A stretch of 64,000 nucleotides of DNA, from assembly GCF_009931435.1 (NCBI RefSeq), contig NZ_CP043414.1; one strand, 5' to 3'. How positions within the stretch are numbered: the stretch's first letter is position 1; every line of letters starts with the position of its first letter. The notes beneath the pieces are model-generated. The model was given only the letters and a program-made list of their open reading frames with translations, did no database searches and was not told where the DNA came from. A program made the translations under genes and the position numbers. This document shows positions 1 to 56,799 of this stretch, piece by piece. The stretch comes from Escherichia coli. Its GTDB lineage: Bacteria; Pseudomonadota; Gammaproteobacteria; Enterobacterales; Enterobacteriaceae.

Positions 1-422
1 TCAATCACGCTCATCGCCGTGGCGGTTTTGCTTACCTGCGCCAGCGAGCGGTTTAGTTGTTGGAGGGGGAAAAGTCGCGGGTCGGGAAAGGCCGAGGCAA
101 ACGGAACTACCGACGGATCGCGACTGGCCTGCAACATATCAAAAATATAGGTGTTGATATCGACTGCTTCATCTCGAGTGACTGGAATGACTGTCGCTTT
201 CGGCATTTTTATTGCCTGTGGCGCAACGTAATAACCCGATTGCGGTCGCGCGATAATATATCCCTGACTTTCGAGCAACTGATAGGCATGGCTGACAGTC
301 ATAAAGCTCATGCCAGAAAGCGCCACCTGGTCACGCAACGAAGGCAAACGATCTCCGGGTTGCCAGATACCCGACGCAATCTGCTCGCGTAATTGTTCTG
401 CAAGCTGCTGGTATTTTTTCAT
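1..422 (-). CDS. ydcR: MocR/GntR-family regulator YdcR (HTH plus aminotransferase-like domain), N-terminal part; gene continues beyond window start
   Basis: Minus-strand translation from ATG at 422-420 reads MKKYQQLAEQLREQIASGIWQPGDRLPSLRDQVALSGMSFMTVSHAYQLLE..., a GntR-type winged HTH; no stop before position 1. Listed +strand ORF 57-392 is its antisense. Confidence 0.8.
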   Translation of the reverse strand, partial: MKKYQQLAEQLREQIASGIWQPGDRLPSLRDQVALSGMSFMTVSHAYQLLESQGYIIARPQSGYYVAPQAIKMPKATVIPVTRDEAVDINTYIFDMLQASRDPSVVPFASAFPDPRLFPLQQLNRSLAQVSKTATAMSVI

Positions 423-500
423 TATCGAATCGTTATTATGTGCAGGTGATTCGGCAGTCTATATCAGTTGTTAAAAATGACAACTTTTCATTAACTGTTA

Positions 501-626
<126 letters not shown>

Positions 627-835
627 GTACCCACAATAACACGAGGGGGTACAACAATGAACATCGGTAAAGCAATCATCAACTACGCAGCGCGTCGCAA
701 CATGGACATTACCTGATTGACGATGAGACCGTGGCGTTCTGGGAAGCGGATAACGATTGTGAATGGATGTTCTCCTACATGATTGGTAATGATGGTTTCC
801 TCCACTTTAAAGGCAATGTGTATCTGCTGTAGTGG

Positions 836-1656
<821 letters not shown>

Positions 1657-1700
1657 GTTGCATACAACGGCAACAGGAAACCGCGCCCTGAGTTTCTCAA

Positions 1701-2012
<312 letters not shown>

Positions 2013-2088
2013 AATGTCACCTGTTTTTGACTATGAGGCGATGATATCACCTCTATTCAGGTGGCCAAATTCAGTGTGCCACTACAGT

Positions 2089-2265
2089 ATGGCTAAGATG
2101 GAATCAGAGATTAAATCACTTAAAGCTGATAACGCCGCATTACGAAAGAGTTTAAAACTGATTGATGAGACTAATGCGGTTATGATGGATCATGTATTCC
2201 CTGAGTGGCGAAATGAAACTAAACCTACACAATATAAGAAACCTACACTTCGAGTGGTTGCATAA
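2089..2265 (+). CDS. Hypothetical 58-aa coiled-coil protein, possibly a gene fragment truncated by the adjacent IS
   Basis: ATG at 2089 directly abuts the IS end (2086) with no Shine-Dalgarno; reads MAKMESEIKSLKADNAALRKSLKLIDETNAVMMDHVFPEWRNETKPTQYKKPTLRVVA. The listed ORF 2014-2265 begins inside the IS terminus. Confidence 0.3.
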   Translation: MAKMESEIKSLKADNAALRKSLKLIDETNAVMMDHVFPEWRNETKPTQYKKPTLRVVA

Positions 2266-2269
2266 AAAA

Positions 2270-2296
2270 AGGGACTCCGAAGAGTCCCTAGTAAGT
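2270..2296 (-). terminator. Intrinsic terminator (minus strand)
   Basis: Hairpin GGGACTC-TTCG-GAGTCCC followed by a run of seven T on the minus strand. Confidence 0.65.
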
Positions 2297-2371
2297 TTAG
2301 GTTAGGTTTGCACAACAAAGATGAGGTTATAATGAACATAATGCTACATTATTCTTTAAAGCCAGAAAAAT

Positions 2372-2392
2372 AACCGCCCCGAAGGGCGGGAG
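2372..2392 (-). terminator. Intrinsic terminator (minus strand) downstream of the small membrane-protein genes
   Basis: Minus-strand hairpin CCGCCC-TTCG-GGGCGG followed by TTATTTTTCT. Confidence 0.6.
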
Positions 2393-2547
2393 GATTAATA
2401 CTCAATCTATACTTGTTATGTTTTTATGTTGTATAGATCACTGACTATGAAAACACTGTACTGGAGTGTGTTTTATGGCTTTTAATCGGGAATCCTCAAA
2501 GAAGATCCCCTGTTAATAACCATAAGGAGAAAAGGCAGATTACACTA

Positions 2548-2721
2548 TTATTTAGCATCCTTTTTACAGCAACTAAAAAGAATAAACAGGATTAAACATC
2601 CCCAGCCGTAAGGTGTACCAATTAGAAATTTGAAAAACACCACCATCGATATAAAAATCAATTTAATGCCAGCGACGATAGTCAAAAACAGCAGAGTAGC
2701 AAAGTAGACAAAAAGATCCAT
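2548..2721 (-). CDS. Small hydrophobic protein (57 aa, about two TM segments, basic C-terminus); not in ORF track (under 60 aa)
   Basis: Manual translation MDLFVYFATLLFLTIVAGIKLIFISMVVFFKFLIGTPYGWGCLILFILFSCCKKDAK; ATG 2721-2719, TAA stop 2550-2548; co-directional with upstream genes and followed by the terminator at 2372-2392. Confidence 0.45.
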   Translation of the reverse strand: MDLFVYFATLLFLTIVAGIKLIFISMVVFFKFLIGTPYGWGCLILFILFSCCKKDAK

Positions 2722-2770
2722 AGATAATCCTCTTTGAAAACGACCATCATCTATAGTTCAATTCATCGAT

Positions 2771-2953
2771 TTAATTAATGATACTTGAAAGCGTTACACA
2801 CAGCAGAAATGCCAATATGTGCCATGAATATACGATAGTTAATCCTACAGTAAGACAAATCAAAAATTCAACCATAGGTAAATCCTCAAATAAGAAAAAG
2901 GTTAGCGGGGGGTGATTCCCCCCGTAGACGTTGACCAGCTCAACATCTTTCAT
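2771..2953 (-). CDS. Small hydrophobic protein (60 aa, about two TM segments)
   Basis: ORF-track protein MKDVELVNVYGGNHPPLTFFLFEDLPMVEFLICLTVGLTIVYSWHILAFLLCVTLSSIIN; starts 21 nt after the stop of the Nu1-like gene. Confidence 0.5.
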   Translation of the reverse strand: MKDVELVNVYGGNHPPLTFFLFEDLPMVEFLICLTVGLTIVYSWHILAFLLCVTLSSIIN

Positions 2954-2973
2954 ACATTTATTTATAACGCGTT

Positions 2974-3525
2974 TTAAGACACATCAAATTCATCGTCTTC
3001 TTCTGGTTCTTGTTCCGGTTCATCCATTAATGGTAATTCTTCTTCCTCGTCTTCTCCCAAATCAGCATTTTCGAACAAGTCCCCTACTTCATTTAAACGA
3101 AGCTCGATGATCTCCCTTAGCTTATTCTTCAATGTTTTCTGATCAGTGGCGGATTCTAAAATTTCTAGGGCATCGATTGTGGCGATCTGCAAGATAGTCT
3201 GCTTCACCTTCCCACAATATTCAGCTAGTTCCTGTTCTACATACCCGACCGGAATCAGGAGATTCATTGCTTCCTGGTTCTCTCGTTCGGCTGCATCTGC
3301 TAATGCTCTCTCACGGCGTAATTTCTCTACGTCGATTTGTTCCTTGATAGAAGTTTCTTTAAGCGGGTTAATGATGTTCTTCAAGACCCAATCACACCCA
3401 GGCTTCGCCGGGACACGTCTTGTATTTGTGTTATAAGGTAGACCCCTTTCTAACCATTTCTTAGCGGCGTTAATTGTATAGCCGTATAAGCGGGAAATTT
3501 CTGTAAGGGTTAATTCTTCTTTCAT
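2974..3525 (-). CDS. Putative DNA-binding protein resembling phage terminase small subunit Nu1 (N-terminal winged HTH, acidic C-terminal tail); orphan, no large terminase nearby
   Basis: Translation MKEELTLTEISRLYGYTINAAKKWLERGLPYNT...EKLRRERALADAAERE...DEEEELPLMDEPEQEPEEDDEFDVS has the layout of lambda gpNu1 as recalled. Start set at the second ATG (3525) because a GGAGG lies about 9 nt upstream; the listed ORF begins at 3540. Confidence 0.55.
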   Translation of the reverse strand: MKEELTLTEISRLYGYTINAAKKWLERGLPYNTNTRRVPAKPGCDWVLKNIINPLKETSIKEQIDVEKLRRERALADAAERENQEAMNLLIPVGYVEQELAEYCGKVKQTILQIATIDALEILESATDQKTLKNKLREIIELRLNEVGDLFENADLGEDEEEELPLMDEPEQEPEEDDEFDVS

Positions 3526-3886
3526 CCGGTTATCCTCCATTAAATTTGCGTAAAATTATTTATCTGATCTACGCATTCAGGAGAGCGCCTAAAACGCTTT
3601 CTAACGACATGAAAGATCTAGGCGTGGAAAGGAATTGGCGGGTGTTAATAGTCGCGTAGCGACCGCGCTGGTGGGCTGCACTGCACCTGTTTTGAAATCT
3701 CACACGCACATCAAATACCGGGGTGCCGAAAACTCCCTTTATTTCATCCGCGGAACAGTACCTTTTTAATTTGTCAAGCATTAATTTCTTAATTTAATTA
3801 CTAAATCTCACCCCAATAATTGAAAAAATATCAAAAATCAATAAAGTAAGCATCTAAAAGTCAGTCCATACCAAAAGAGGTATAAA

Positions 3887-4666
3887 ATGAAAAACATTAT
3901 CGCTGCTATCGTGCTTTCTGCTACTGCTTTCGGTGCTGATGCTGCGTCCTTTGATTGCACTAAGGCTATAACCAAATCAGAGAAGTTTATTTGTGCTAAT
4001 GAGTCAATCTCCGCACTGGATTCTAAACTTCATGAAGTATATGTTAAGGCTGTTAAGATTGATCCGTCTCTTAAACAAGAGCAACGCAACTGGAATAAAA
4101 CTGTTCGTGATACAATGATCAATATCGGGCAGATTCAGCCACTGGAGGCTGTATACAACGCTCAAATCCAAAACTTGATGAATGTATTATCTAAAGAAGA
4201 AACCGCGTCAGAGAGCGTTACAGATGATTCTGCAAAGGTTGAAGAAGAACAACCGAAACAGGAAGAAGTAAAGAAACTGAATGTTACCGCGATTTACGCA
4301 TGTACTGCAAAATTTACATGGAAAGTTATCGATGGTGAGGAAACAGAAGCTGTAAAAGATTACTTATACGGAAACAAAGATCATGATGATAAAGGCGGTA
4401 AACTTAAAATCAAACTGGTAGATGATGTTCCTGTGTATTTTGTTTACACCGACAAATATAACGTTTATAAATCACCACTCAAACCAGCTAAAGAAAATCC
4501 AAACGCAATGGAGGGTAAATCCAAACAGGATACTATTGGACGTGTTAACACTTATAACATCTGGGTAAGCAAAAAAGGTGACATGCGTCTTGAAGTTATT
4601 GAACCAAAATATGATTCTGAATATAAACACACTCAATTTGCATGTGACATGGTAGACGCAGAGTAA
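3887..4666 (+). CDS. Secreted/periplasmic protein with N-terminal DUF1311 (LprI-like lysozyme-inhibitor fold) domain and an uncharacterised C-terminal domain
   Basis: Signal peptide MKNIIAAIVLSATAFGADA; motif FDCTKAITKSEKFICANESISALDSKLHEVY typical of DUF1311; acidic linker; Shine-Dalgarno AGAGG 8 nt upstream. Confidence 0.75.
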   Translation: MKNIIAAIVLSATAFGADAASFDCTKAITKSEKFICANESISALDSKLHEVYVKAVKIDPSLKQEQRNWNKTVRDTMINIGQIQPLEAVYNAQIQNLMNVLSKEETASESVTDDSAKVEEEQPKQEEVKKLNVTAIYACTAKFTWKVIDGEETEAVKDYLYGNKDHDDKGGKLKIKLVDDVPVYFVYTDKYNVYKSPLKPAKENPNAMEGKSKQDTIGRVNTYNIWVSKKGDMRLEVIEPKYDSEYKHTQFACDMVDAE

Positions 4667-5226
4667 GAGGTGAAATGATGCAATTCAATAGCATGAAGAT
4701 TACTCAAAAATGGTGGGATGCGATGAAAGCTAACCACCAGAACGATATTAATTAAGTAACATTTTAGATATACAGCACCCAGCTAACAGATCACCTTTTA
4801 TGGATTTCATTATAACCCCTTTGATCTGGAAACTATGTTAATTAGTTGATTTCTAAGCCTTGTCCTTGTGATGGGGCTTTTTATTGCAAAATTTTTAGTT
4901 ATTTTGGGTTGACTACATTCGGGTTGCCAATTCGCCTGGCTAACTCTTGCTGAGTGATTTCTGACTGTAAAAAAGCATTTAACAGCAATACCTTAGAGGC
5001 GACGCTCAAAGGCACTTCAATAAAGTGATCGTGACTATTTAATGGCGAAGTTTACCTCCGTGTGTAATGTGCTCGAAAATAGCACTAAATCGCCGCAACG
5101 GCAGAATGCAATGCAAAATCAGGAAGGAAGATTCCAGAATTTCTTTGCGCTAATTTGCAAAACTGAATAATAACCTCAAGAAACGATCGGCATCATAGCG
5201 GCAAAAGGTCAGAAAAAGGTGGCGGG

Positions 5227-5457
5227 ATGTTTTCGAAGGCGTTATCGGTTGTCTTATTAACGTGTGCACTGTTCTCAGGACAACTCATGGCAGGGCACAA
5301 AGGACATGAATTTATGTGGGTAAAGAATGTGGATCATCAGCTGCGTCATGAAGCGGACAGCGATGAATTGCGTGCCGTGGCGGAAGAGTCGGCGGAAGGT
5401 TTGCGCGAGCATTTTTACTGGCAAAAATCGCGCAAACCAGAAGCAGGACAGCATTGA
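5227..5457 (+). CDS. yncJ: Small secreted protein YncJ
   Basis: 76-aa ORF MFSKALSVVLLTCALFSGQLMAGHKGHEF...WQKSRKPEAGQH, near-identical to E. coli YncJ as recalled. Confidence 0.9.
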   Translation: MFSKALSVVLLTCALFSGQLMAGHKGHEFMWVKNVDHQLRHEADSDELRAVAEESAEGLREHFYWQKSRKPEAGQH

Positions 5458-5467
5458 GTCGTATGAT

Positions 5468-5497
5468 GCCGGATGCGGCGTGACGCCTTACCCGGCC
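5468..5497. repeat. REP (repetitive extragenic palindromic) element
   Basis: GCCGGATGCGGCGTGACGCCTTACCCGGCC between convergent yncJ and ydcP. Confidence 0.6.
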
Positions 5498-5548
5498 AAC
5501 AAGATCATGCAGACTCAATGAGCTGAGAATAACCTGAAAACCTGCGTT

Positions 5549-7552
5549 TTATCCTTTACGCTTCGGCAATGTTTTTAGCAGCTCATCCGGGCTTACGGAG
5601 GCGACAACACTCCCTGGTAACGGCATTTTAAGAATGTGATTTTTGATTTTGCCAATGACGTGCATCTCACATGGGCGACAATCGAACTTTAGCGTTAATA
5701 CTTCATCGCCATTAACCAGTTGCATTGGCGTCGCCTTCCAGCTTTTGATGTTACCTTTTGCCTGTTTCGGACACAGATTGAAGGCAAAGCGCAGACAATG
5801 CTTGGTGATCATTACCGGCACTTCCCCCTTCTCTTCATGCGCTTCATACGCCGCATCAATCAGTTGCACACCATAGCGATGATAAAATTCACGCGCTTTC
5901 TGGTTGTAAACGTTCGCGAGGAAACTCAAATGCGTTTGCGGATAAACCGGCGCAGGGTCAGCAACCGGTTTACGACTGCCGCGCTGATAACTGGCAAGAC
6001 GTGCAGCATCCAGCATGTCAACGGCTTCACGGCGGAACTGATTTAACAGACTGTTCGGTACAAACAGCGCACCAGGCAGGTTAATTTGCACATCGCGGGC
6101 GTAATAGATGGTTTGCCCCAGCTTAGCCAGACCATCTTTCAGGTTATTAAGCGCTTTTTCGGCGTTATTAGCTTCGTCGAATTGTCCATCCAGCGTATGC
6201 GTGACGCTGACGCCCTCTTCACTGGTCAGGGTCAGAATCAGTTGTTCCTGCCAGCCGCCCAGTTCAATGTCTACCGCTACGCGACGTTCGCTGGATGTTT
6301 TGGTCAACGCCTGCTGCCAGTTATGGTCCAGATTACGATTAAGCGGATGATGCGGACGAATTTTATGCAAATCCGCAGGCATCTCATTTGGCCAGACGCG
6401 GTACTGATTTTGCCCGGTTTTTTCGACTGTATTGGCGCGAAAGCCAACCACTTCACGTTTAATCATCACATTCAGACCATCGCCATTTGCTAACGGCTCG
6501 GTGACGGCAACATCAATATGATCTTTCGCTACTTTCAATACTTCGCCCACCGGCAGGCCAATGAATTTCGGTGAATCGAACGCGCCAATATCGCCTTTAC
6601 GCGCGTTAACAAAGTAGTCTGTGCTGCCTCGGTGGAAAGTCTTTTCCGTCGACGGGACAAAGAAATGTTCAGTACGACCTGATGACGCACGCGCCAGATC
6701 GCCACGTTCTTCAATAATGGCATCCAGCATCTGGCGATAATGTGCGGTGATATTCTTCACGTAACTCATATCTTTGTAACGCCCTTCAATCTTGAAGGAG
6801 CGCACGCCAGCATCAATCAGCGCGCCGAGGTTGGCAGTCTGATCGTTATCTTTCATCGACAGCAGATGTTTTTCATAGGAAACCACCCGCCCCTGATCGT
6901 CTTTCAATGTGTATGGCAAACGGCACGCCTGCGAGCAATCGCCACGGTTGGCGCTACGCCCTGTTTGCGCATGAGAAATGTAGCACTGACCCGAATAGGC
7001 CACGCACAATGCACCATGAATAAAGAATTCAATGGTCGCGTCCGTGGCCTGGTGAATCGCGCGGATCTGCTCAAGATTCAGCTCTCGCGCCAGCACAATC
7101 TGCGTAAAGCCAACATCAGAGAGGAACTTCGCTTTTTCTACTGTGCGAATATCGCACTGCGTACTGGCGTGCAGTTCAATCGGCGGAATATCAAGTTCCA
7201 GAATCCCCATATCCTGAACAATCAGCGCATCGACGCCGGTCTGGTAGAGGTCGGTAATCAGCCGTTGCGCAGGTTCCAGCTCATCATCATGCAAAATGGT
7301 GTTAAGCGTGACGAAAATTTTTGCACCATAACGATGGGCAAACGGCACCAGTTCGGCAATATCTTTCAGGCTATTACTGGCATTATGACGGGCACCAAAA
7401 CCAGGGCCGCCGATATAAACAGCATCGGCACCGTGCAAAATAGCTTCGCGGGCAATGGCGGCATCGCGTGCCGGGCTTAACAGTTCAAGTCGATGAGAAG
7501 ATACGGTCACATTCTTATCCAGTAGCTGAAAAATGGCGGCTATTTTAGCCAC
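5549..7552 (-). CDS. ydcP: Peptidase U32-family protein YdcP (RlhA)
   Basis: 667-aa ORF with U32 peptidase-like core; the true start may be a few codons inside the listed ORF. Confidence 0.85.
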   Translation of the reverse strand: MAKIAAIFQLLDKNVTVSSHRLELLSPARDAAIAREAILHGADAVYIGGPGFGARHNASNSLKDIAELVPFAHRYGAKIFVTLNTILHDDELEPAQRLITDLYQTGVDALIVQDMGILELDIPPIELHASTQCDIRTVEKAKFLSDVGFTQIVLARELNLEQIRAIHQATDATIEFFIHGALCVAYSGQCYISHAQTGRSANRGDCSQACRLPYTLKDDQGRVVSYEKHLLSMKDNDQTANLGALIDAGVRSFKIEGRYKDMSYVKNITAHYRQMLDAIIEERGDLARASSGRTEHFFVPSTEKTFHRGSTDYFVNARKGDIGAFDSPKFIGLPVGEVLKVAKDHIDVAVTEPLANGDGLNVMIKREVVGFRANTVEKTGQNQYRVWPNEMPADLHKIRPHHPLNRNLDHNWQQALTKTSSERRVAVDIELGGWQEQLILTLTSEEGVSVTHTLDGQFDEANNAEKALNNLKDGLAKLGQTIYYARDVQINLPGALFVPNSLLNQFRREAVDMLDAARLASYQRGSRKPVADPAPVYPQTHLSFLANVYNQKAREFYHRYGVQLIDAAYEAHEEKGEVPVMITKHCLRFAFNLCPKQAKGNIKSWKATPMQLVNGDEVLTLKFDCRPCEMHVIGKIKNHILKMPLPGSVVASVSPDELLKTLPKRKG

Positions 7553-7582
7553 AAGCGCGACGTTGCGAAATAGTTTTCCCGC

Positions 7583-8119
7583 TTAACTGCGTGGGTAATG
7601 GATGAGGGAATGAAAATGTACGATTTGCTCCCCACCATTACGATAGACATGCGTAACGTCTGCAGCAAATCGAGCGCCTTCTCCACAATTAAGGCTCTGC
7701 CATTCACCATCAACGCACAGATCAAGTTGCCCATCAATGACGACAACATGTTCGATTACTCCCTTCTCATGGGGCGTCGATTCACTTATTGCACCGGGAG
7801 CCATCTGAATTGAGAAGTGTTCAAAGCAGAGTTGCGGATCATAAGGAAACAGCGAAGTGATCACCATCGCCTGCTGTTGCGGATCATAAACTGAAGGCGT
7901 AGCGGACTGCGGCGGAGAAATAAATGTCGAAAATGGCACATTCAACCCGGTGGCAATTTTCCATAATGTCGCGACCGTCGGGCTGGACTCATTACGCTCA
8001 ATCTGCCCTAACATCGCTTTAGAAACCCCCGTCGCTTCTGCCAGTCGCGAAAGACTCCAGCCGCGCTGCTGACGCAGATGTTTAAGTGTAGTGGATAAAA
8101 AGCGAGTGAGATTTTCCAT
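7583..8119 (-). CDS. sutR: HTH-XRE plus cupin transcriptional regulator SutR (YdcN)
   Basis: 178-aa ORF with N-terminal XRE HTH (LRQQRGWSLSRLAEATGVSKAMLGQIERNESSPTVATLWKIATGL) and C-terminal cupin. Confidence 0.9.
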   Translation of the reverse strand: MENLTRFLSTTLKHLRQQRGWSLSRLAEATGVSKAMLGQIERNESSPTVATLWKIATGLNVPFSTFISPPQSATPSVYDPQQQAMVITSLFPYDPQLCFEHFSIQMAPGAISESTPHEKGVIEHVVVIDGQLDLCVDGEWQSLNCGEGARFAADVTHVYRNGGEQIVHFHSLIHYPRS

Positions 8120-8210
8120 GTGACTCCTCCGGCAAAGCGGAAGTTTATCACTTGTGCGTTATAACGGACAAATGCTACGGTACCTGTACGCTATAACGCA
8201 CGAGGTGACC

Positions 8211-9383
8211 ATGCGTCTGTTTTCTATTCCTCCACCCACGCTACTGGCGGGGTTTCTGGCGGTATTAATTGGCTACGCCAGTTCAGCGGCAATAATCTGG
8301 CAAGCAGCGATTGTCGCCGGAGCCACCACTGCACAAATCTCTGGCTGGATGACGGCGCTGGGGCTGGCAATGGGCGTCAGTACGCTGGCTCTGACATTAT
8401 GGTATCGCGTACCTGTTCTCACCGCATGGTCAACGCCTGGCGCGGCTTTGTTGGTCACCGGATTACAGGGACTAACACTTAACGAAGCCATCGGCGTTTT
8501 TATTGTCACCAACGCGTTAATAGTCCTCTGCGGCATAACGGGACTCTTTGCTCGTCTGATGCGCATTATTCCGCACTCGCTTGCGGCGGCAATGCTTGCC
8601 GGGATTTTATTACGCTTTGGTTTACAGGCGTTTGCCAGTCTGGATGGTCAGTTTACGTTATGCGGTAGTATGTTGCTGGCGTGGCTGGCGACAAAAACTT
8701 ATGCGCCGCGTTATGCGGTAATTGCGGCGATGATAGTTGGCATCGTAATCGTTATTTTACAAGGTGACGTTGTCACAGGGGATATTGCCTTTAAACCCGT
8801 TCTCCCCGCTTATATTGCCCCTGAATTTTCGTTTGCTCACAGTCTGAGCGTTGCACTCCCCCTTTTTCTGGTGACGATGGCATCGCAAAACGCACCGGGT
8901 ATTGCGGCAATGAAAGCGGCCGGGTATTCGGCTCCTGTTTCGCCGTTGATTGTATTTACTGGATTGCTGGCGCTGGTATTTTCCCCTTTCGGGGTTTATT
9001 CCGTTGGTATTGCAGCAATCACCGCGGCTATTTGCCAAAGCCCGGAAGCGCATCCGGATAAAGATCAACGTTGGCTGGCAGCTGCCGTCGCAGGCGTTGT
9101 TTATTTGTTTGCAGGTCTGTTTGGTAGCGCCATAACTGGAATGATGGCCGCGCTGCCCGTGAGTTGGATCCAGATGCTGGCAGGTCTGGCGCTGTTGAGT
9201 ACCATTGGCGGCAGTTTGTATCAGGCGCTGCATAATGAGCGTGAGCGAGACGCGGCGGTGGTGGCATTTCTGGTAACGGCAAGTGGATTGACGCTGGTCG
9301 GGATTGGTTCTGCGTTCTGGGGATTAATTGCCGGAGGCGTTTGTTACGTGGTGTTGAATTTAATCGCTGACAGAAACCGATAA
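8211..9383 (+). CDS. ydcO: BenE-family inner-membrane transporter YdcO
   Basis: Polytopic membrane ORF; start placed at the ATG at 8211 (GAGGTG Shine-Dalgarno just upstream) rather than the listed 8154. Confidence 0.85.
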   Translation: MRLFSIPPPTLLAGFLAVLIGYASSAAIIWQAAIVAGATTAQISGWMTALGLAMGVSTLALTLWYRVPVLTAWSTPGAALLVTGLQGLTLNEAIGVFIVTNALIVLCGITGLFARLMRIIPHSLAAAMLAGILLRFGLQAFASLDGQFTLCGSMLLAWLATKTYAPRYAVIAAMIVGIVIVILQGDVVTGDIAFKPVLPAYIAPEFSFAHSLSVALPLFLVTMASQNAPGIAAMKAAGYSAPVSPLIVFTGLLALVFSPFGVYSVGIAAITAAICQSPEAHPDKDQRWLAAAVAGVVYLFAGLFGSAITGMMAALPVSWIQMLAGLALLSTIGGSLYQALHNERERDAAVVAFLVTASGLTLVGIGSAFWGLIAGGVCYVVLNLIADRNR

Positions 9384-9385
9384 TA

Positions 9386-9412
9386 AAAAGCGCCATCTTA
9401 CGATGGCGCGGC
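9386..9412 (-). terminator. Hairpin/terminator between convergent ydcO and ydcL
   Basis: GCGCCATC-TTAC-GATGGCGC stem with a T-run on the minus strand. Confidence 0.6.
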
Positions 9413-9417
9413 TGGAA

Positions 9418-10086
9418 TTACTTTTTGTTAACGTCAAACATAGTGGCATCGGTCGCCATGTCATCAATAACTTGTTTAATATTTTCGAAAGCCATTGGCG
9501 TACTTTCGTTATTCAGGTCTTTACCTTCGCCCTGACGAACGACTTTGATAACCGGTTTATTAGTAGCTGCATCAATCAGCTCACCTTCAAAATACAGGCG
9601 AGTATCCATGGTACGGTGGCCCGTCGCCATTTGCGTCCCCGCGACCACTAATGCGACAGGAACCACTTCATAGAATTGCAGCCCTTCTTTGCTGGTATCA
9701 ACACCGGTAATGGCCCCACGGAAAATCAGACTACGCGGCCCAGCGGTGGTAACCAGTGGTTTACGCTGCGCAATCGCTTCTTTCATTTCGGTGTTGGTAT
9801 AACTCAAAATTTTATCCAGAACTTTCTGCCCTACCTGGGTAGATGGTTTCGGTACCGGATAATAAGTGACTGGGTTCCAGACGATGCTGTCATATTTGCT
9901 TTGATCAAAACTCGGGTCTACCCAACGTAAAACAGGTTTACCTGTTGCTGAGGTTGTTTCTTTTAAATCAGAGTAATTGTTTAAAAAACCAGAATATTTA
10001 TCTGGCTGGGTGATTTTAGAGGCACAACCAGACAGAGCCAACAAGCCGCATAAAGCTGCAACTTTCGCAATTGATGTGGTACGCAT
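9418..10086 (-). CDS. ydcL: Lipoprotein YdcL
   Basis: 222-aa ORF with lipobox (LALSGC). Confidence 0.9.
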   Translation of the reverse strand: MRTTSIAKVAALCGLLALSGCASKITQPDKYSGFLNNYSDLKETTSATGKPVLRWVDPSFDQSKYDSIVWNPVTYYPVPKPSTQVGQKVLDKILSYTNTEMKEAIAQRKPLVTTAGPRSLIFRGAITGVDTSKEGLQFYEVVPVALVVAGTQMATGHRTMDTRLYFEGELIDAATNKPVIKVVRQGEGKDLNNESTPMAFENIKQVIDDMATDATMFDVNKK

Positions 10087-20139: not shown

Positions 20140-20368
20140 CGACTAAAAACCTCTTTGCGTCACATTTTTACAACAATTATTGCAGAGAAGATTAATGCCA
20201 TTGGATTGAAGAAAGTGAGGAATGGTTAAACTGGCTAACCCGAATGACGAAAAATTCTGGAAAACAGCACGCAATTTCGTCAGGTGATTATTTTCGTCCC
20301 TAAGGAAACCACATAGGATGCTCACGGGTGCCTGAGACTTTCTGTTTTCAGGCTAACCGGGAATCAGA

Positions 20369-20413
20369 AAGACGAAGGCCCCGACCGATATTTCTATCAA
20401 CCGAGGCCAACGA

Positions 20414-20424
<11 letters not shown>
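20369..20424 (-). ncRNA. sokB: sokB antisense RNA of the hokB/mokB type I toxin-antitoxin locus (approximate coordinates)
   Basis: Placed from the conserved hok/sok architecture (antisense overlapping the mok start); boundaries not supported by clear promoter or terminator signals. Confidence 0.35.
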
Positions 20425-20621
<197 letters not shown>

Positions 20622-20692
20622 GGGCAAGCGCGGGGATTTTCCCCGCGCATCTGACTAGCGGATTCAGTTTCTCATGGCACCCCTTTTACACT

Positions 20693-38531: not shown

Positions 38532-41500
38532 TTAGAACGTTTTCTTGAAGTTCAGCATCACGCCTTTATCGCTGATACCATCCTCTTTCCAGTGGTAAGC
38601 ATCCAGATTCAGCGAACTTTCTTTGCTGCTGTACTTCACGCCGACGCTTGCCAGACTGTTGATGCCGCCGCCCTTCTGCCCATCATCGACATTAAAGTGC
38701 TGGCTGCCTGCGCCTGCCAGGCTTGCCGTGCGCTGGCTCTTGCTGTAGCTGAGGTTCGGCCCACCTTCCAGCGTGGCGTTCGCACTCCAGCCGTCTTTCC
38801 CTGCGTAGTCCAGCTTCAGCCCGACGATGCTGTCCACCGCCGTTTCGCTGCCGCTGTTCATGCTCAGGTTAAAGTCTCCGGCATTGCGCTCCTGATAGTC
38901 GCCTTCCAGCGTGTGACGCAGTTTCACACCCGCATATGGCGTGATTTTCAGCCCTTCGCGCGGTTCAAAGGTTTTCGCCCCTTCGCTGCGGAACTCCAGG
39001 TACTGTTGTTTCACATTCGTGTCTGCCGTCTTACTGATGTCGCCGTAAGCCACCGAACGGCTGCTGTCCAGTTGGTGAATATCGTAGCGCAGCGCGTTAT
39101 TCCAGCTCATACCGTTGTCAAAGGACATCTGATGCTTCAGGCCAAAGAACTGGCTGTAGCCGCCTGTAACACCATTATCACCCGCTTTCTGCGCACCATC
39201 GCCGTCCAGACGGGCGATACCGTACTCCAGGCTCATGGTCTGGTTTTCGCTCAGGTCGAGGGTTTTGCGCAGCGCCAGCATGTCGTACTCGGTATTATTC
39301 CCCAGCTCTGCACGCGGATCGCCTTTCGCCACCACGTTAAATGCCAGACCGTTGCCCATCTTCGGTGCTGCGTCTGCCAGCATACTAAAGCGATTGCTTA
39401 ACACACGCGCTTCGCGGAATACCGTGGTCGCCTGGCTACCGCTAATTTGCTTAAGTGCGCTGTTCAGCTCTGCAGTGGTGCCGACGTTCAGACTGGTATA
39501 CAGCTCATTGTTGGTGTAACCCGCATCCAGCGCTTTTGCCACGTCATTCACTGAGGCATCCGTCGCCACATCGGTGTAGGCTTTTTTGCTCATGGTCACG
39601 TCAACGTTGCCGCTGGCGTCGGTACTGCCTGTCGCCTGCCAGACAACAGATGTCGAAGTGATCGCTTGCGCATCGGTCAGGTTGCTGCCTTGCACCACAT
39701 CATCAAAGCTGGCGGTTTTGTCCGCCGTTCCCGCCGCAAAAGCAGTGTTGATCTCCACGCCTTTCATACTGGCGTTATTGACCATCAGCTTACCAGCGCT
39801 ACCATCGGCGTTCGTCCCCACCACGTAACCATTGAGGTTGTTCATGCCATCGTTGCGGCTAACGGAAGAAGAATGACTGTCGTCGTATGGCGTAATGGTG
39901 GGTTCTTCCGGCGCGGTAAAGTCGACATAGTGTACTTCCGTACCGTCTCCCCCTTCACCACTGCCCTCCATCACCGTGCCAGATTGTTTAATTAATCCGG
40001 AACCATTCACGCTGTCGTCAATATAAACAGTGCCGTTGTTAACAATATGACCATTGCTCCCGAGCTTGCTGAAGGCATATGAATTGCTGGCATATATATT
40101 GATGGTGCCGTTATTCTCAATCACCGCATCAGCCGTGGCATCGGATTCCAGTTGCATCCCTACCATGCCTGTCCTGGTAGTTCCTTGCGTGCCAACGTTA
40201 ATGGTGCCGTTGTTGATCATTTTGGCTTTACCGTGCGCCGACATCGCCACATTACTATTTTTGTCGATATTAATAATGCCGTCGTTTATTGCCTTGCTGG
40301 CCGTGTTTGATGTCAGGATCTGCCCGTTGATGAAGCCAGACTGGCCATTATAGAACGTATGCCCATCACCACCGGTGCTAATTCTCATGTCACCTTCTAC
40401 TGTCCCCCAATTATTAAAATGTCCTGTCCACAGCGCATTCGTCGCCACCGTTGCCACACTGCCTTCCAGATTGTTGAAGGTGCCACCTTTATCAACCGAT
40501 GCATTATTTACGGTACCAGCATTATTAAAGGTAGAGGCTGCAGCAAAAGTTATTTTCTCTACTTTTCCACCGGCCTGATTATTCATTACGGCAGACCCGG
40601 AAGAACCTTTCCAGGCGTTCACCGTTCCGGTGTTATAAAAATTGCTGGCCCACTGGTCAACCGTGTTGATGCTGCCTGAGTTGTGAATAACCGATCCTGC
40701 AACAGTCGTTCCGACTTGCCCGCTCACCGTACCTTCGTTAGTGAACACGCCGCCATCCACAGAAACAGTTTTTGTCGTGCCGTGGTTGGTGTATTCCCCA
40801 CCGGTTGCGATATCAACCTCAATAATACTGCCCGTGGTTTCATTGACCAGATGACCAAAGTCAGCCACGGTGACAGGTCCCCCGGTGACCGTACCCGTGT
40901 TTGTTACCAGGGTTTCGGCGGTTGCCGTGATATCAGTAGTACCGCCATATGAATACAGGTTAAGCGTTTCCCCGTCAGCCGAAATAATGTCACCATTTCT
41001 CCAGCTTAATGAAACAAACCCGTCAGTCGGGTTATAGGCGTTATTGTCCTGGCATTTCCCAAAAGTACAGATGGATCCGTAATTAACGATAGTCCCGCTG
41101 CCATCGTTATAGAACGCCTGCCCGTTTTCAGCATTAATATTGATGATGCCCGTCTGATCATTAATCGCAGTGGCACCATTGTAAACAGCCATGCCGACCA
41201 ATTTATTTGGCCCCAGCGTATCATCATCATTTTCATTTACTTCCAGATTTATAGTTCCCTGGTTAATAATAATGTTACCTGGCTTCATCGCAGCCATACC
41301 GGCACCGGAATTATAGAGTGTTATTTCACCACCCTGCTGGTTAATGGCGGTAGAATTAACGCTGGCACCAGAACTGTCTGTACCCACAGCCATCCCGACA
41401 GCATAATCTTTGGCGCTGTCATGAGCGATATTGGACGCCAGACTGGAAGTATCGTTTTCATCAACCCATAATGCGTCAATGAAAATCTTACCCATATTGT

Positions 41501-44024
41501 CAATGGTTGAATTATTGGAGGCCAGCATGCCAACACTCCCCCGGCCGTACATTTGGATCTCACCGGCAGTATTATTTAAAGCGGTGCCATTGTTGCCTGC
41601 CGTCATCCCCGTCAGACTAATGACTTGATTATTAAAAATTAAAGGGTCACTCAAACCTTGAGCGTTCAGACTATTGAAAATACGTCCCTGCGCGAGTACC
41701 TTACTGGTGATGGCACTGTTATTAACAACTCGACCACCATAGACGCTCAAATACGCAGAACTAGCAGAGTCTGATGTATTCCCCTCTACGCCGTAGATAG
41801 AAATCGTTACGTTGTTATTATTTACAGCTAGCGACTCTTCACCAGTAGCCCTGGCAAAGCCAATATTACCCAGTTCTACATCACCATTATTTATCATCTG
41901 CGAACCGGAATTCACCAGTACAACCTGTGATGTGTCACTATTATAATGTTCAAATGTATTTATATCTTTTAGGATAAAAGTGGCGTTGCGGCCAAGTTCT
42001 AAATGGGCTCGGTTATTCAGTTGAATGATATCGCCTAATCCAAGCGGAAAAACACCACTGATTGTTGAATCCCCATTTAGATACAGAGTAGAGTGCCCAT
42101 CGATTTTGATAACAGGCGTATCGCCATAACCATTACGTTTTAAAGCAGGTGTGGAGCCATCCTGTAGAGTATTTTCTTCGCCAGCTAAATGGATACCACC
42201 ATTAATTTCGACGGTATTACCGTCACCCGACACAACCAGACCATTAATATTTTCCTGGCTGCCATCCATTTCATTATAGATACGAGAAGTGACTTCACTG
42301 TCAGCAACAACGGTAAGATTGCCATTTAATACGATATTATTGTCGTGTCCCTGCACCTGAATGCCAACAGAAGGGGTAAAAAAGTCATTTATTGAATGCT
42401 CTCCGGCCTGATTTTTATCCACCAGAATATTACCGGTAATTTCAACTTCATTGCCATCACCGGCTACATTTACCCCTGTCGCAACACTGCCGGTCACATT
42501 AAGCTCATTTGTCGCCAGCGTCATGGCGTTATTATTTCCAGAGACATCCAGACCGGTTGAATAATCCCCTACATCCACACGGCCAGCCAGAGAAATCAGA
42601 CCATCATCTCCGATGATGCGAATCCCGGTACTGAAATTATCAGCAATGATGTCCCCCACATTGATAAGGGTAGAATGATTACCCTCAATCAGAATCCCTG
42701 TCGCATTGGCCTCTGAACTACCATTACTGACGGATATATCCCCCCTGTTAATGAACGTCGACGCATCACCACTGAGAGAAACACCCTGCGAATTTTCATC
42801 CACGACCGTTATATTTCCTTTGTTGCTGACGATCGCGCCATTACCCTCAACATCAATACCCCGTGCAGCATTGCTAACGTATAAATCCCCTTCCTGTATA
42901 ACCGTCGCATTATTACCAACGATTTTGCTGCCCGTTGAATTTTGCCCATCAACCGTCATATGTCCTTTATTATCGGTCCTGACATCATTACCGCTAATAA
43001 CGGCCCCTATTCCGCCGTTATTGACAGTGGAGTCGCCAGTGTTATTTAAGATTGTACGATCGCCATTGACGATAACCGCCGTGCCAGCATCGACCACCGT
43101 CTGACCGTTATTATTGATGGTTATATTATCGCCGGTCAGGATACCGACCACCGAACCTTCACCGACAGCCTCTGTTTTACCCTCGTTTGTCAGCGCAATG
43201 TTGTTACCATTAATCATCATCACCGTGCCGCCATTCAGGGCCGTGTTACCGCCCTGGTCAGTGATAATCGCATCATTAACGGTAATTATTCTGTCCGTTG
43301 TTCCATCAGACACGACACTGGCTAACTGTGTGACGTGGAGTTTACCTTCGTCATCGTAGCGCCATTCCATATCACCTGTGGTACTCACACCACTAAACAT
43401 GGCGGTATGAGTCTCTTCATGGTTTTCCCACTCAGTCACAATGGTTTTTCGGCCATCTTTTGCCGTCAGCGTGTAGCTACCATCTTCATTTTGGGTATAA
43501 GTGAACGTCGCCCCGCGAATCTTCAGGGTTTGCGCGTCCTTGTCCCATGTCACATTGTTATCAAAGACAACGGGTTCTGTTCTCGGGGGGTCAACATCAT
43601 CACCGCTATTGTCGGGTGGAGTAACATTACCGCCGTTATCTGGCTTTACAGGTATACCTGAATCTTCATCACTGGGAACGGGTAGCGGTAGAGGGCCATT
43701 ATCATCTGGCGGTATGGGCTGGGGAAAAGAAGAGTGAGCAGAATGATCATTGTCATGAGACAATTCAATCACTGCGAGTGTTGCCAGTACCGCCGTGGCA
43801 CCTAATGCCAGTAACGAGCTGAAACCATTATTTGTAACAACAGCACATTTTTCTGGCACTGTTTTCAACTTCGTTGACGGTCGGGCGTGCCCTTCTGACT
43901 GACATGTCATTTGAGAGCTTCTGCGCATACTGTCTGCACTCTCGCCTTCTGTTATTTCCGCCCCCCAGCTTTGGCCACTTAACGCTATAGCGATACACGC
44001 TGATAATAACGTTTTCTTTTGCAT
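38532..44024 (-). CDS. ydbA: Giant autotransporter adhesin YdbA, uninterrupted 1830-aa frame
   Basis: Signal peptide, long degenerate beta-helical passenger repeats (N-x-G-x-I/V motifs) and C-terminal beta-barrel translocator ending ...MLNFKKTF. Confidence 0.9.
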   Translation of the reverse strand: MQKKTLLSACIAIALSGQSWGAEITEGESADSMRRSSQMTCQSEGHARPSTKLKTVPEKCAVVTNNGFSSLLALGATAVLATLAVIELSHDNDHSAHSSFPQPIPPDDNGPLPLPVPSDEDSGIPVKPDNGGNVTPPDNSGDDVDPPRTEPVVFDNNVTWDKDAQTLKIRGATFTYTQNEDGSYTLTAKDGRKTIVTEWENHEETHTAMFSGVSTTGDMEWRYDDEGKLHVTQLASVVSDGTTDRIITVNDAIITDQGGNTALNGGTVMMINGNNIALTNEGKTEAVGEGSVVGILTGDNITINNNGQTVVDAGTAVIVNGDRTILNNTGDSTVNNGGIGAVISGNDVRTDNKGHMTVDGQNSTGSKIVGNNATVIQEGDLYVSNAARGIDVEGNGAIVSNKGNITVVDENSQGVSLSGDASTFINRGDISVSNGSSEANATGILIEGNHSTLINVGDIIADNFSTGIRIIGDDGLISLAGRVDVGDYSTGLDVSGNNNAMTLATNELNVTGSVATGVNVAGDGNEVEITGNILVDKNQAGEHSINDFFTPSVGIQVQGHDNNIVLNGNLTVVADSEVTSRIYNEMDGSQENINGLVVSGDGNTVEINGGIHLAGEENTLQDGSTPALKRNGYGDTPVIKIDGHSTLYLNGDSTISGVFPLGLGDIIQLNNRAHLELGRNATFILKDINTFEHYNSDTSQVVLVNSGSQMINNGDVELGNIGFARATGEESLAVNNNNVTISIYGVEGNTSDSASSAYLSVYGGRVVNNSAITSKVLAQGRIFNSLNAQGLSDPLIFNNQVISLTGMTAGNNGTALNNTAGEIQMYGRGSVGMLASNNSTIDNMGKIFIDALWVDENDTSSLASNIAHDSAKDYAVGMAVGTDSSGASVNSTAINQQGGEITLYNSGAGMAAMKPGNIIINQGTINLEVNENDDDTLGPNKLVGMAVYNGATAINDQTGIININAENGQAFYNDGSGTIVNYGSICTFGKCQDNNAYNPTDGFVSLSWRNGDIISADGETLNLYSYGGTTDITATAETLVTNTGTVTGGPVTVADFGHLVNETTGSIIEVDIATGGEYTNHGTTKTVSVDGGVFTNEGTVSGQVGTTVAGSVIHNSGSINTVDQWASNFYNTGTVNAWKGSSGSAVMNNQAGGKVEKITFAAASTFNNAGTVNNASVDKGGTFNNLEGSVATVATNALWTGHFNNWGTVEGDMRISTGGDGHTFYNGQSGFINGQILTSNTASKAINDGIINIDKNSNVAMSAHGKAKMINNGTINVGTQGTTRTGMVGMQLESDATADAVIENNGTINIYASNSYAFSKLGSNGHIVNNGTVYIDDSVNGSGLIKQSGTVMEGSGEGGDGTEVHYVDFTAPEEPTITPYDDSHSSSVSRNDGMNNLNGYVVGTNADGSAGKLMVNNASMKGVEINTAFAAGTADKTASFDDVVQGSNLTDAQAITSTSVVWQATGSTDASGNVDVTMSKKAYTDVATDASVNDVAKALDAGYTNNELYTSLNVGTTAELNSALKQISGSQATTVFREARVLSNRFSMLADAAPKMGNGLAFNVVAKGDPRAELGNNTEYDMLALRKTLDLSENQTMSLEYGIARLDGDGAQKAGDNGVTGGYSQFFGLKHQMSFDNGMSWNNALRYDIHQLDSSRSVAYGDISKTADTNVKQQYLEFRSEGAKTFEPREGLKITPYAGVKLRHTLEGDYQERNAGDFNLSMNSGSETAVDSIVGLKLDYAGKDGWSANATLEGGPNLSYSKSQRTASLAGAGSQHFNVDDGQKGGGINSLASVGVKYSSKESSLNLDAYHWKEDGISDKGVMLNFKKTF

Positions 44025-44670
44025 GAGAAATCCTTTTCAATGAATGACATTTCAAATAATAAAATATGAGTAATAGATAAGAAATAGCCACAGGCTGTGT
44101 CATGATTTAATGCCTGCTCTTGAAATTTTATTTAGCAATCCCAGAACATTCAACTTAATTAGTATTTCGAAACCTCAATGTAGACACATAAAAAACAAAT
44201 TATTCGATTACTTAGGCTATTTGTTGCATTAATACACATCCTCTAACAATAATCAGACAAAAAGCAATGTCAGCGTCAAATTGGGTAGCTGATTCATATT
44301 ACTGACCACTCCGGAAATTCATTCATCGTGAAAATATTAACATTTCAACCATGTTCCATTTAATCAACCCACTGAAAATCTGGAGGTTATCTACTGCGGT
44401 TTGTTGTTGACTGCCCCTGACAGGTTTACCAGGCGTTGACAGAAGATGAGGCTTGCAAGATGCTAAAAACAATGTGGTGTTACAAGCAATCCCATAAACC
44501 TCGTAACTTCACTTAAATGAGCGATGCCGTCCATATTTGGGTTGACTATAAAAACCCTTAATATTGAGGTTGATGATGATATTCATGATGGCATTGGAAA
44601 AATAGGACACCCATAAAATATCTATACAGCCTTTAAATTAAATCATTGAAATATCGCTGTTGCATAGTGC

Positions 44671-44997
44671 TTATTTTTGCAACCATTTCCCGTTAATTCC
44701 CTGCACATATTCCCCCGGTTTGGCCCGAGCTACAAGCTTTTGTCCGGCAAGCTTCGCGATATCATCTACCGATACATTATTTTGCTTTGCCAGTTGTTGA
44801 TAACTCACTTTACGTGCGGCATTAATCTCGGTTACTAATTTCTCTGTTTCAGCATCCGTTTTCAACGCAACCAAATAACCGTTAAATGTTTCACCTACCC
44901 GCCCCTGAATTCTGGCCTCGTCCAGTGTTAATGCCACTACATTGCTGCTTACCAGTCCAACAAGAAACGCACAAAGAAGTAATGTTTTCTTCATCAT
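44671..44997 (-). CDS. ydbL: Periplasmic protein YdbL (DUF1318)
   Basis: Start set at MMKKTLLLCAFLVGLVSS (signal peptide); the listed ORF extends 26 codons upstream into ynbE. Confidence 0.85.
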   Translation of the reverse strand: MMKKTLLLCAFLVGLVSSNVVALTLDEARIQGRVGETFNGYLVALKTDAETEKLVTEINAARKVSYQQLAKQNNVSVDDIAKLAGQKLVARAKPGEYVQGINGKWLQK

Positions 44998-55863: not shown

Positions 55864-56799
55864 ATGTCGCAAAATCAAGAAATTAGTAAGAAAGAACAAT
55901 ACAATCTCAACAAATTACAAAAACGTCTGCGTCGTAACGTGGGCGAAGCCATTGCTGACTTCAATATGATTGAAGAAGGCGATCGCATCATGGTTTGCCT
56001 CTCCGGGGGTAAAGACAGCTATACCATGCTGGAGATTCTGCGCAATTTGCAGCAAAGCGCGCCAATCAATTTTTCGCTGGTGGCTGTTAACCTCGATCAA
56101 AAGCAACCGGGCTTCCCGGAACACGTTCTGCCCGAGTATCTTGAAAAGCTGGGCATTGAGTACAAGATTGTGGAAGAGAACACTTACGGTATCGTGAAAG
56201 AGAAGATTCCGGAGGGCAAAACCACTTGCTCACTGTGTTCTCGTCTTCGTCGCGGAATTCTTTACCGTACCGCAACGGAACTGGGAGCGACGAAGATCGC
56301 GCTGGGTCACCATCGTGACGATATCCTGCAAACGTTGTTCTTAAATATGTTCTACGGCGGCAAGATGAAAGGTATGCCTCCGAAACTGATGAGCGATGAT
56401 GGCAAACATATTGTGATTCGTCCGCTGGCCTACTGCCGCGAGAAAGATATTCAGCGCTTTGCCGATGCAAAAGCGTTCCCGATTATTCCGTGCAACCTGT
56501 GCGGTTCACAGCCTAACCTGCAACGTCAGGTGATTGCTGACATGTTGCGTGACTGGGATAAACGTTATCCGGGGCGTATCGAGACGATGTTCAGCGCGAT
56601 GCAGAATGTGGTGCCGTCGCATCTGTGCGATACCAACCTGTTCGATTTCAAAGGCATTACCCACGGTTCTGAAGTGGTTAACGGGGGTGATCTGGCGTTT
56701 GATCGCGAAGAGATCCCTCTACAACCGGCGGGTTGGCAGCCTGAAGAAGATGAAAATCAGTTGGATGAGTTACGACTGAATGTGGTTGAAGTGAAATAA
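55864..56799 (+). CDS. ttcA: tRNA 2-thiocytidine(32) synthetase TtcA, intact
   Basis: 311-aa ORF with PP-loop SGGKDS and Cys clusters. Confidence 0.95.

Follow-up and report, generated by a model that had tools for sequence, protein, structure and literature searches.

In Escherichia coli K-12 the convergent genes ydcO and ydcL are held apart by the insertion sequence IS609. In the E. coli DNA analyzed here (a stretch of 64,000 nucleotides from contig NZ_CP043414.1, hereafter the window) the same two genes face each other directly, which raises the question of whether IS609 never reached this site or was once there and has been lost.

The ydcO-ydcL junction as an empty IS609 site

The names ydcO and ydcL are those of the RefSeq annotation in near-identical genomes, and the features of the junction are collected in Table 1, in which the coordinates of ydcO are those of its longest ORF (in close relatives RefSeq puts the start at the equivalent of ~8172 or 8211). 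The first-pass annotation had described two convergent genes with only a 34-bp spacer that contains a shared hairpin; the two ORFs confirm both the orientation and the spacer length, and a hairpin is indeed found where it was proposed. The ydcO stop codon, a TAA at 9381..9383, is directly followed by a second in-frame TAA.

Table 1. Features of the ydcO-ydcL junction, in window coordinates.
Feature	Position	Strand	Remarks
ydcO, BenE-family transporter	8154..9383	+	409-aa ORF; Pfam BenE, E 8e-159
20 nt identical to the K-12 IS609 right-end flank	9363..9382	-	Sequence comparison
T-tract TTTTTATTAT	9380..9389	-	Directly 3' of the hairpin in the ydcL sense; overlaps the ydcO stop codon
K-12 IS609 insertion point	9382..9383		Inside the ydcO stop codon, TA/A
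TTTAT	9383..9387	-	Directly 5' of the IS609 left end in K-12
Spacer between convergent ydcO and ydcL	9384..9417		Exactly 34 bp, from the sequence and the ORF list
Predicted terminator hairpin	9390..9409	-	8-bp stem (6 G-C pairs), 4-nt loop
ydcL, DUF3313 lipoprotein gene	9418..10086	-	222-aa ORF; Pfam DUF3313, E 6e-63

The same annotation had placed an IS609-family gene, insQ, between ydcL and ydcO in K-12 and had called it absent here. This gene order is right: in MG1655 (NC_000913.3) IS609 is annotated at 1503161..1504908, a span of 1748 bp between ydcL (b1431) and ydcO (b1433), and it consists of the pseudogene yncK (tnpA, b4578) and of insQ (b1432). Alignment to MG1655 yields two colinear blocks, in which window positions 5050-9382 correspond to 1509241-1504909 and positions 9383-39847 to 1503160-1472698, and what is missing from the window at their junction is exactly the annotated 1748 bp of IS609, insQ included. 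The K-12 flanks read CCGATA on one side of these 1748 bp and ATAAAAAGC on the other, and when rejoined they give the window sequence CCGATAATAAAAAGC to the base. The occupied and the empty allele differ by IS609 exactly, with neither target duplication nor scar, and the K-12 flanks are rejoined just as exactly in O157:H7 and ATCC 25922.

Away from the breakpoint, the window matches K-12 over 30 nt on the right-end side of the element and in the TTTTTAT on its left-end side; the spacer differs from the K-12 flank at three positions, one a T/A difference in the hairpin loop and the other two located between the hairpin and ydcL. Because the right end of IS609 supplies TAT TGA in place of the interrupted stop codon, YdcO of K-12 is one residue longer. 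Throughout the 64-kb window no insQ, tnpA or IS609 end was detected, at up to three mismatches or by blastn, and on this basis the presence of hidden IS609 ends or of a mini-element in the window was rejected. The ydcO-ydcL junction of the window is an empty target site of IS609, an element of the IS200/IS605 family.

The ydcO gene itself is a recombination mosaic in the window. Between ~8600 and 9200 it departs by ~10% from mainstream E. coli, reaching up to 18 differences per 100 nt, and at 8300-8600 and 9200-9382 it is nearly identical to mainstream E. coli. The closest genome, 2020CK-00188, has the divergent ydcO tract in common only to ~9000. The description of the strain as a deep-branching lineage, considered for the ~5% divergence of the flanks, was softened, since much of this divergence comes from the mosaic at ~8600-9200.

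The spacer hairpin as a predicted ydcL terminator

The hairpin reads GCGCCATC-TTAC-GATGGCGC on the plus strand and folds with -15.3 kcal/mol on this strand and -16.2 kcal/mol on the minus strand; its z scores are close to -3 on both (~-2.9 and ~-3.1, respectively), with one or two of 200 shuffles folding equally well. On the minus strand GCGCCATCGTAAGATGGCGC is followed by TTTTTATTAT, and the hairpin lies 11 nt past the ydcL stop codon. A terminator scan passes the minus strand alone, and comparison of the spacer with Rfam returned no family at gathering score. With its GC-rich 8-bp stem, 4-nt loop and immediate T-run, the structure resembles Rho-independent terminators.

Conservation was surveyed in 80 enterobacterial loci that carry ydcL, with one genome per species. 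Almost every ydcL homologue in these 80 species has a GC-rich hairpin within ~10-25 nt after its stop codon, in most cases with a T-run and irrespective of the gene downstream. Among 30 enterobacterial species (species-level genomes) the stem takes the form GCRCCRTC/GAYGGYGC, with G-C at position 3 in 21 species and A-T in the other 9, with A-T at position 6 in 27 and G-C in the remaining 3, and with no mispair at either position. The loop varies freely, with at least 14 variants. Retention of the stem in these 30 genomes, with full compensation at two positions, shows that the hairpin is conserved beyond chance. By its structure and conservation it is best described as being mainly the intrinsic (Rho-independent) terminator of ydcL, and it would end ydcL transcription.

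The word "shared" in the first-pass annotation therefore holds only in part: the hairpin lies physically between both genes, but it has the form of a canonical terminator for ydcL only. In the ydcO sense the stem is followed by GGCUGGAAUUAC, with no U-tract within 2 nt, and because this sequence takes the place of a U-tract the hairpin is not a canonical terminator of ydcO; a canonical bidirectional terminator for both genes was rejected on this ground and because the scan reports the minus strand only. Toward ydcO the hairpin would at most pause transcription or terminate it partly, and it may pause the polymerase or act through collisions, as in convergent gene pairs. Bidirectional terminators between convergent E. 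coli genes were described by Ju et al. (2019), as related in bioRxiv 10.1101/2022.10.23.513370. The present junction is like those cases in having one hairpin between a convergent pair with a very short spacer. In the occupied allele of K-12, IS609 puts 1.75 kb between ydcO and the hairpin with no evident harm, so that ydcO has no strict need of it.

The gene neighborhood of ydcL varies among the 80 loci. The two genes converge tightly in Escherichia and a few other taxa; in most other genera, including most loci of Citrobacter, Enterobacter and Klebsiella, ydcL and ydcO stand ~2 kb apart. In Klebsiella pneumoniae (locus L062, 4716..6662) this interval is filled by a hydrophobic ORF of 298 aa and an ORF of 292 aa, that on visual inspection resemble an EamA/DMT-type transporter and an AraC-type regulator. 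In E. albertii NBRC 107761 ydcO is absent 3' of ydcL, apart from ~20 nt resembling the ydcO 3' end, and the predicted terminator stem of this strain carries a compensatory A-T to G-C change.

Distribution of the empty site and its probable history

A census of 5426 complete E. coli genomes with 160-bp junction queries found the uninterrupted junction in 2042, among them O157:H7, ATCC 25922 and O127:H6, and the K-12-type junction of ydcO with the IS609 right end in 3265, K-12 and BL21 included; ~119 genomes carry neither form. The empty junction is thus a common presence/absence polymorphism of a transposase-dead IS609, and it is already annotated in thousands of public genomes. Outside the species, three other species-level representatives of Escherichia, 7-13% diverged, possess the same empty convergent spacer, and insQ stands beside ydcL in none of the 80 enterobacterial species representatives (0/80).

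On the strength of the census and of the empty spacer in these three Escherichia outgroups, we consider it highly probable that the window, with its unoccupied junction around the predicted ydcL terminator, shows the ancestral state, and that the K-12 state goes back to a single old insertion. In the ancestral form the terminator would have been contained in the 34-bp spacer between the two genes. IS609 would have inserted once, long ago, in the lineage leading to K-12, in an ancestor of a large E. coli clade, entering 3' of TTTAT in the ydcL T-tract and splitting the ydcO stop codon without duplication, and the window strain, having no such insertion, would have retained the ancestral state. 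That IS609 spread or homed to the ydcL site recently was rejected, because in six occupied strains the element is as diverse as its flanks (2.7% segregating sites in IS609 vs. 2.8-2.9%). It should be added that Escherichia sp. MOD1-EC7003 has an IS609-like remnant at the identical position, which means that the site was occupied more than once or very early, and that the local history need not track the strain tree, because ydcO of the window is a mosaic.

We infer that the site in the window was never occupied, rather than cleanly excised, a state that is not provable from sequence alone because IS200/IS605 elements excise scarlessly (bioRxiv 10.1101/2023.03.14.532601). Under the alternative, a former IS609 copy was removed by TnpA-catalyzed excision that regenerated the original sequence; excision in this family is precise and its donor joint is the empty site (bioRxiv 10.1101/2023.03.14.532601), intact tnpA alleles such as that of O111:H2 08-3342 could act in trans, at least one IS609 left end occurs in 4333 of the 5426 genomes, and the related lineage of MOD1-EC7003 holds its remnant at this very position. 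Such a loss is nevertheless improbable, given that the spacer is empty in more distant Escherichia species, that tnpA at the ydcL locus is dead in 6/6 sampled occupied strains, that the K-12 copy did not move in mutation-accumulation lines, in which zero IS609 events were recorded (PMC5009759), and that the 64-kb window is free of any IS609 sequence.

It is highly improbable that an occupied allele was swapped for an empty one by homologous recombination with another strain. Such an exchange could draw on the mosaic ydcO with its diverged tract, and on the comparison with 2020CK-00188, in which near-identity gives way from ~9005 to 1-3.5% divergence, except for an identical stretch at 9198-9474. 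However, the recombination breakpoints lie at least 180 bp from the junction, nothing indicates that the replaced allele held IS609, and the empty state is both frequent and the outgroup state. Loss of IS609 through assembly collapse or mis-join, for which nothing specific speaks beyond the general capacity of repeats to break or collapse assemblies, has a practically negligible probability, as the junction is identical base for base in 2042 complete genomes (2013C-4282 matches the 160-bp query at 100%) and the join falls at the exact IS609 boundary with no partial IS end present.

The junction is of modest value as the empty half of a clean natural allele pair for an IS200/IS605 element, a pair that illustrates base-exact, duplication-free insertion into the T-tract of a predicted terminator and through a stop codon.

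IS609, its target motif and the predicted guide target

The gene insQ had been called a transposase gene in the first-pass annotation. It does belong to IS609, but its product matches the Pfam families OrfB_IS605, Cas12f1-like_TNB and HTH_OrfB_IS605, and by these domains insQ is a TnpB-type RNA-guided nuclease gene; the transposase of the element is tnpA. This Y1 transposase gene is a pseudogene with an internal stop in K-12, and intact copies are found in some E. coli, e.g., O111:H2 08-3342 (Pfam Y1_Tnp, E 2e-40). In the six strains with a K-12-type IS609 at the ydcL site, tnpA contains stops or frameshifts in 6/6 and insQ is intact in 6/6, with a pN/pS of ~0.2-0.5 that rests on small counts (at most 12 synonymous differences per pair), which suggests that the TnpB gene has been kept by selection after the death of the transposase. 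A literature search for InsQ function (insQ, TnpB, E. coli) found nothing relevant.

The occupied allele shows the family hallmarks of a Y1 HUH transposase, TnpB and subterminal hairpins, of which the right-end hairpin has a z of -3.9 and the left-end fold is weaker (z -1.35). When the 3' end of K-12 insQ was compared with Rfam for a guide RNA, only sub-threshold matches were obtained, namely HgcC at 22 bits vs. a cut-off of 50 and RAGATH-18 at 25 bits vs. a cut-off of 45, neither of them usable. Similar to the "peel-and-paste" IS200/IS605 elements IS608, ISDra2 and ISGst2, the K-12 IS609 has no target duplication, possesses subterminal hairpins together with Y1 transposase and TnpB genes, and is inserted 3' of a short AT-rich motif. 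Indeed, the TTTAT at K-12 IS609 is the same pentamer as the TAM of ISGst2.

The motif recurs at five independent IS609 loci (ydcL, yajI, TetR/ytfB, yeaR-DUF1869 and gltX), where TTTAT stands directly before the left end CCGGTGCGCC in 4/5 and CTTAT in 1/5, and where the right end terminates in GGATGTCAA. The landing of IS609 at the ydcL site can be explained by the ydcL T-tract, which supplies TTTAT. Following the published TnpB model (bioRxiv 10.1101/2023.03.14.532601), the K-12 insQ guide RNA is predicted to target TTTAT and the 20 nt after it on the minus strand of the window, and the same stretch is the predicted donor joint of scarless excision. The window differs from the IS608, ISDra2 and ISGst2 elements in presenting the empty site alone, its role as a donor joint being putative, and its junction offers a ready native target for probing E. 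coli InsQ as a guide-RNA nuclease.

Other elements have come to lie at the same place. In P31_YH1_02.21 an IS200C lies a few bp from the IS609 insertion point, and in Escherichia sp. MOD1-EC7003 (locus L006, 4704..4750) TTTTTAT is directly followed by 46 bp in which IS609-like left and right ends are fused, with most of ydcO deleted beside this hybrid. This remnant looks like the product of a deletion between the similar hairpins of two IS ends, and a remnant of its type was found in no complete E. coli genome at 80% query cover or more. One may ask whether the ydcL T-tract is a recurrent landing pad for IS200/IS605 elements, with an intact insQ maintained there by selection. We regard this combined proposal as unlikely; it counts three elements that lie within a few bp of one point in different lineages, i.e., IS609, the divergent 46-bp IS609-like sequence and IS200C, and would explain the selected insQ either by predicted cleavage of empty alleles after recombination, favoring IS609 retention, or by domestication for a host function. 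Only two points are mildly unusual, namely that elements of one family have used the ydcL T-tract repeatedly and that insQ is still intact.

The empty junction is one of several absences of K-12 mobile DNA in the window. At ~55871..55913 the 23-kb cryptic prophage Rac of K-12 is absent and ttcA is uninterrupted, the alignment of the window across the duplicated attachment site of K-12 overlapping by 43 bp. At 39848..44672 ydbA, a 5.5-kb autotransporter-type gene, is intact; the MG1655 counterpart of this region is 26.5 kb long, with ydbA broken by IS2D and IS30C and with the paa, tynA and feaRB genes in addition, and these genes and both insertion sequences are absent from the window. A 4.3-kb insertion at 622..4923 lies within a remnant of hicB, and the window has neither hicA, the toxin gene, nor the 5' portion of hicB (444 bp in MG1655). 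The insertion carries a frameshifted IS3-family transposase (rve, HTH_Tnp_1), an LprI-like gene and an ORF of 188 aa that matches no Pfam family, and only one complete genome, 2020CK-00188, has the whole arrangement. The hokB/sokB toxin-antitoxin module, which is missing from the related strain N96 owing to a 342-bp indel, is present in the window as it is in K-12 (20326..20477 and 20335..20676; Rfam sok, 114 bits).
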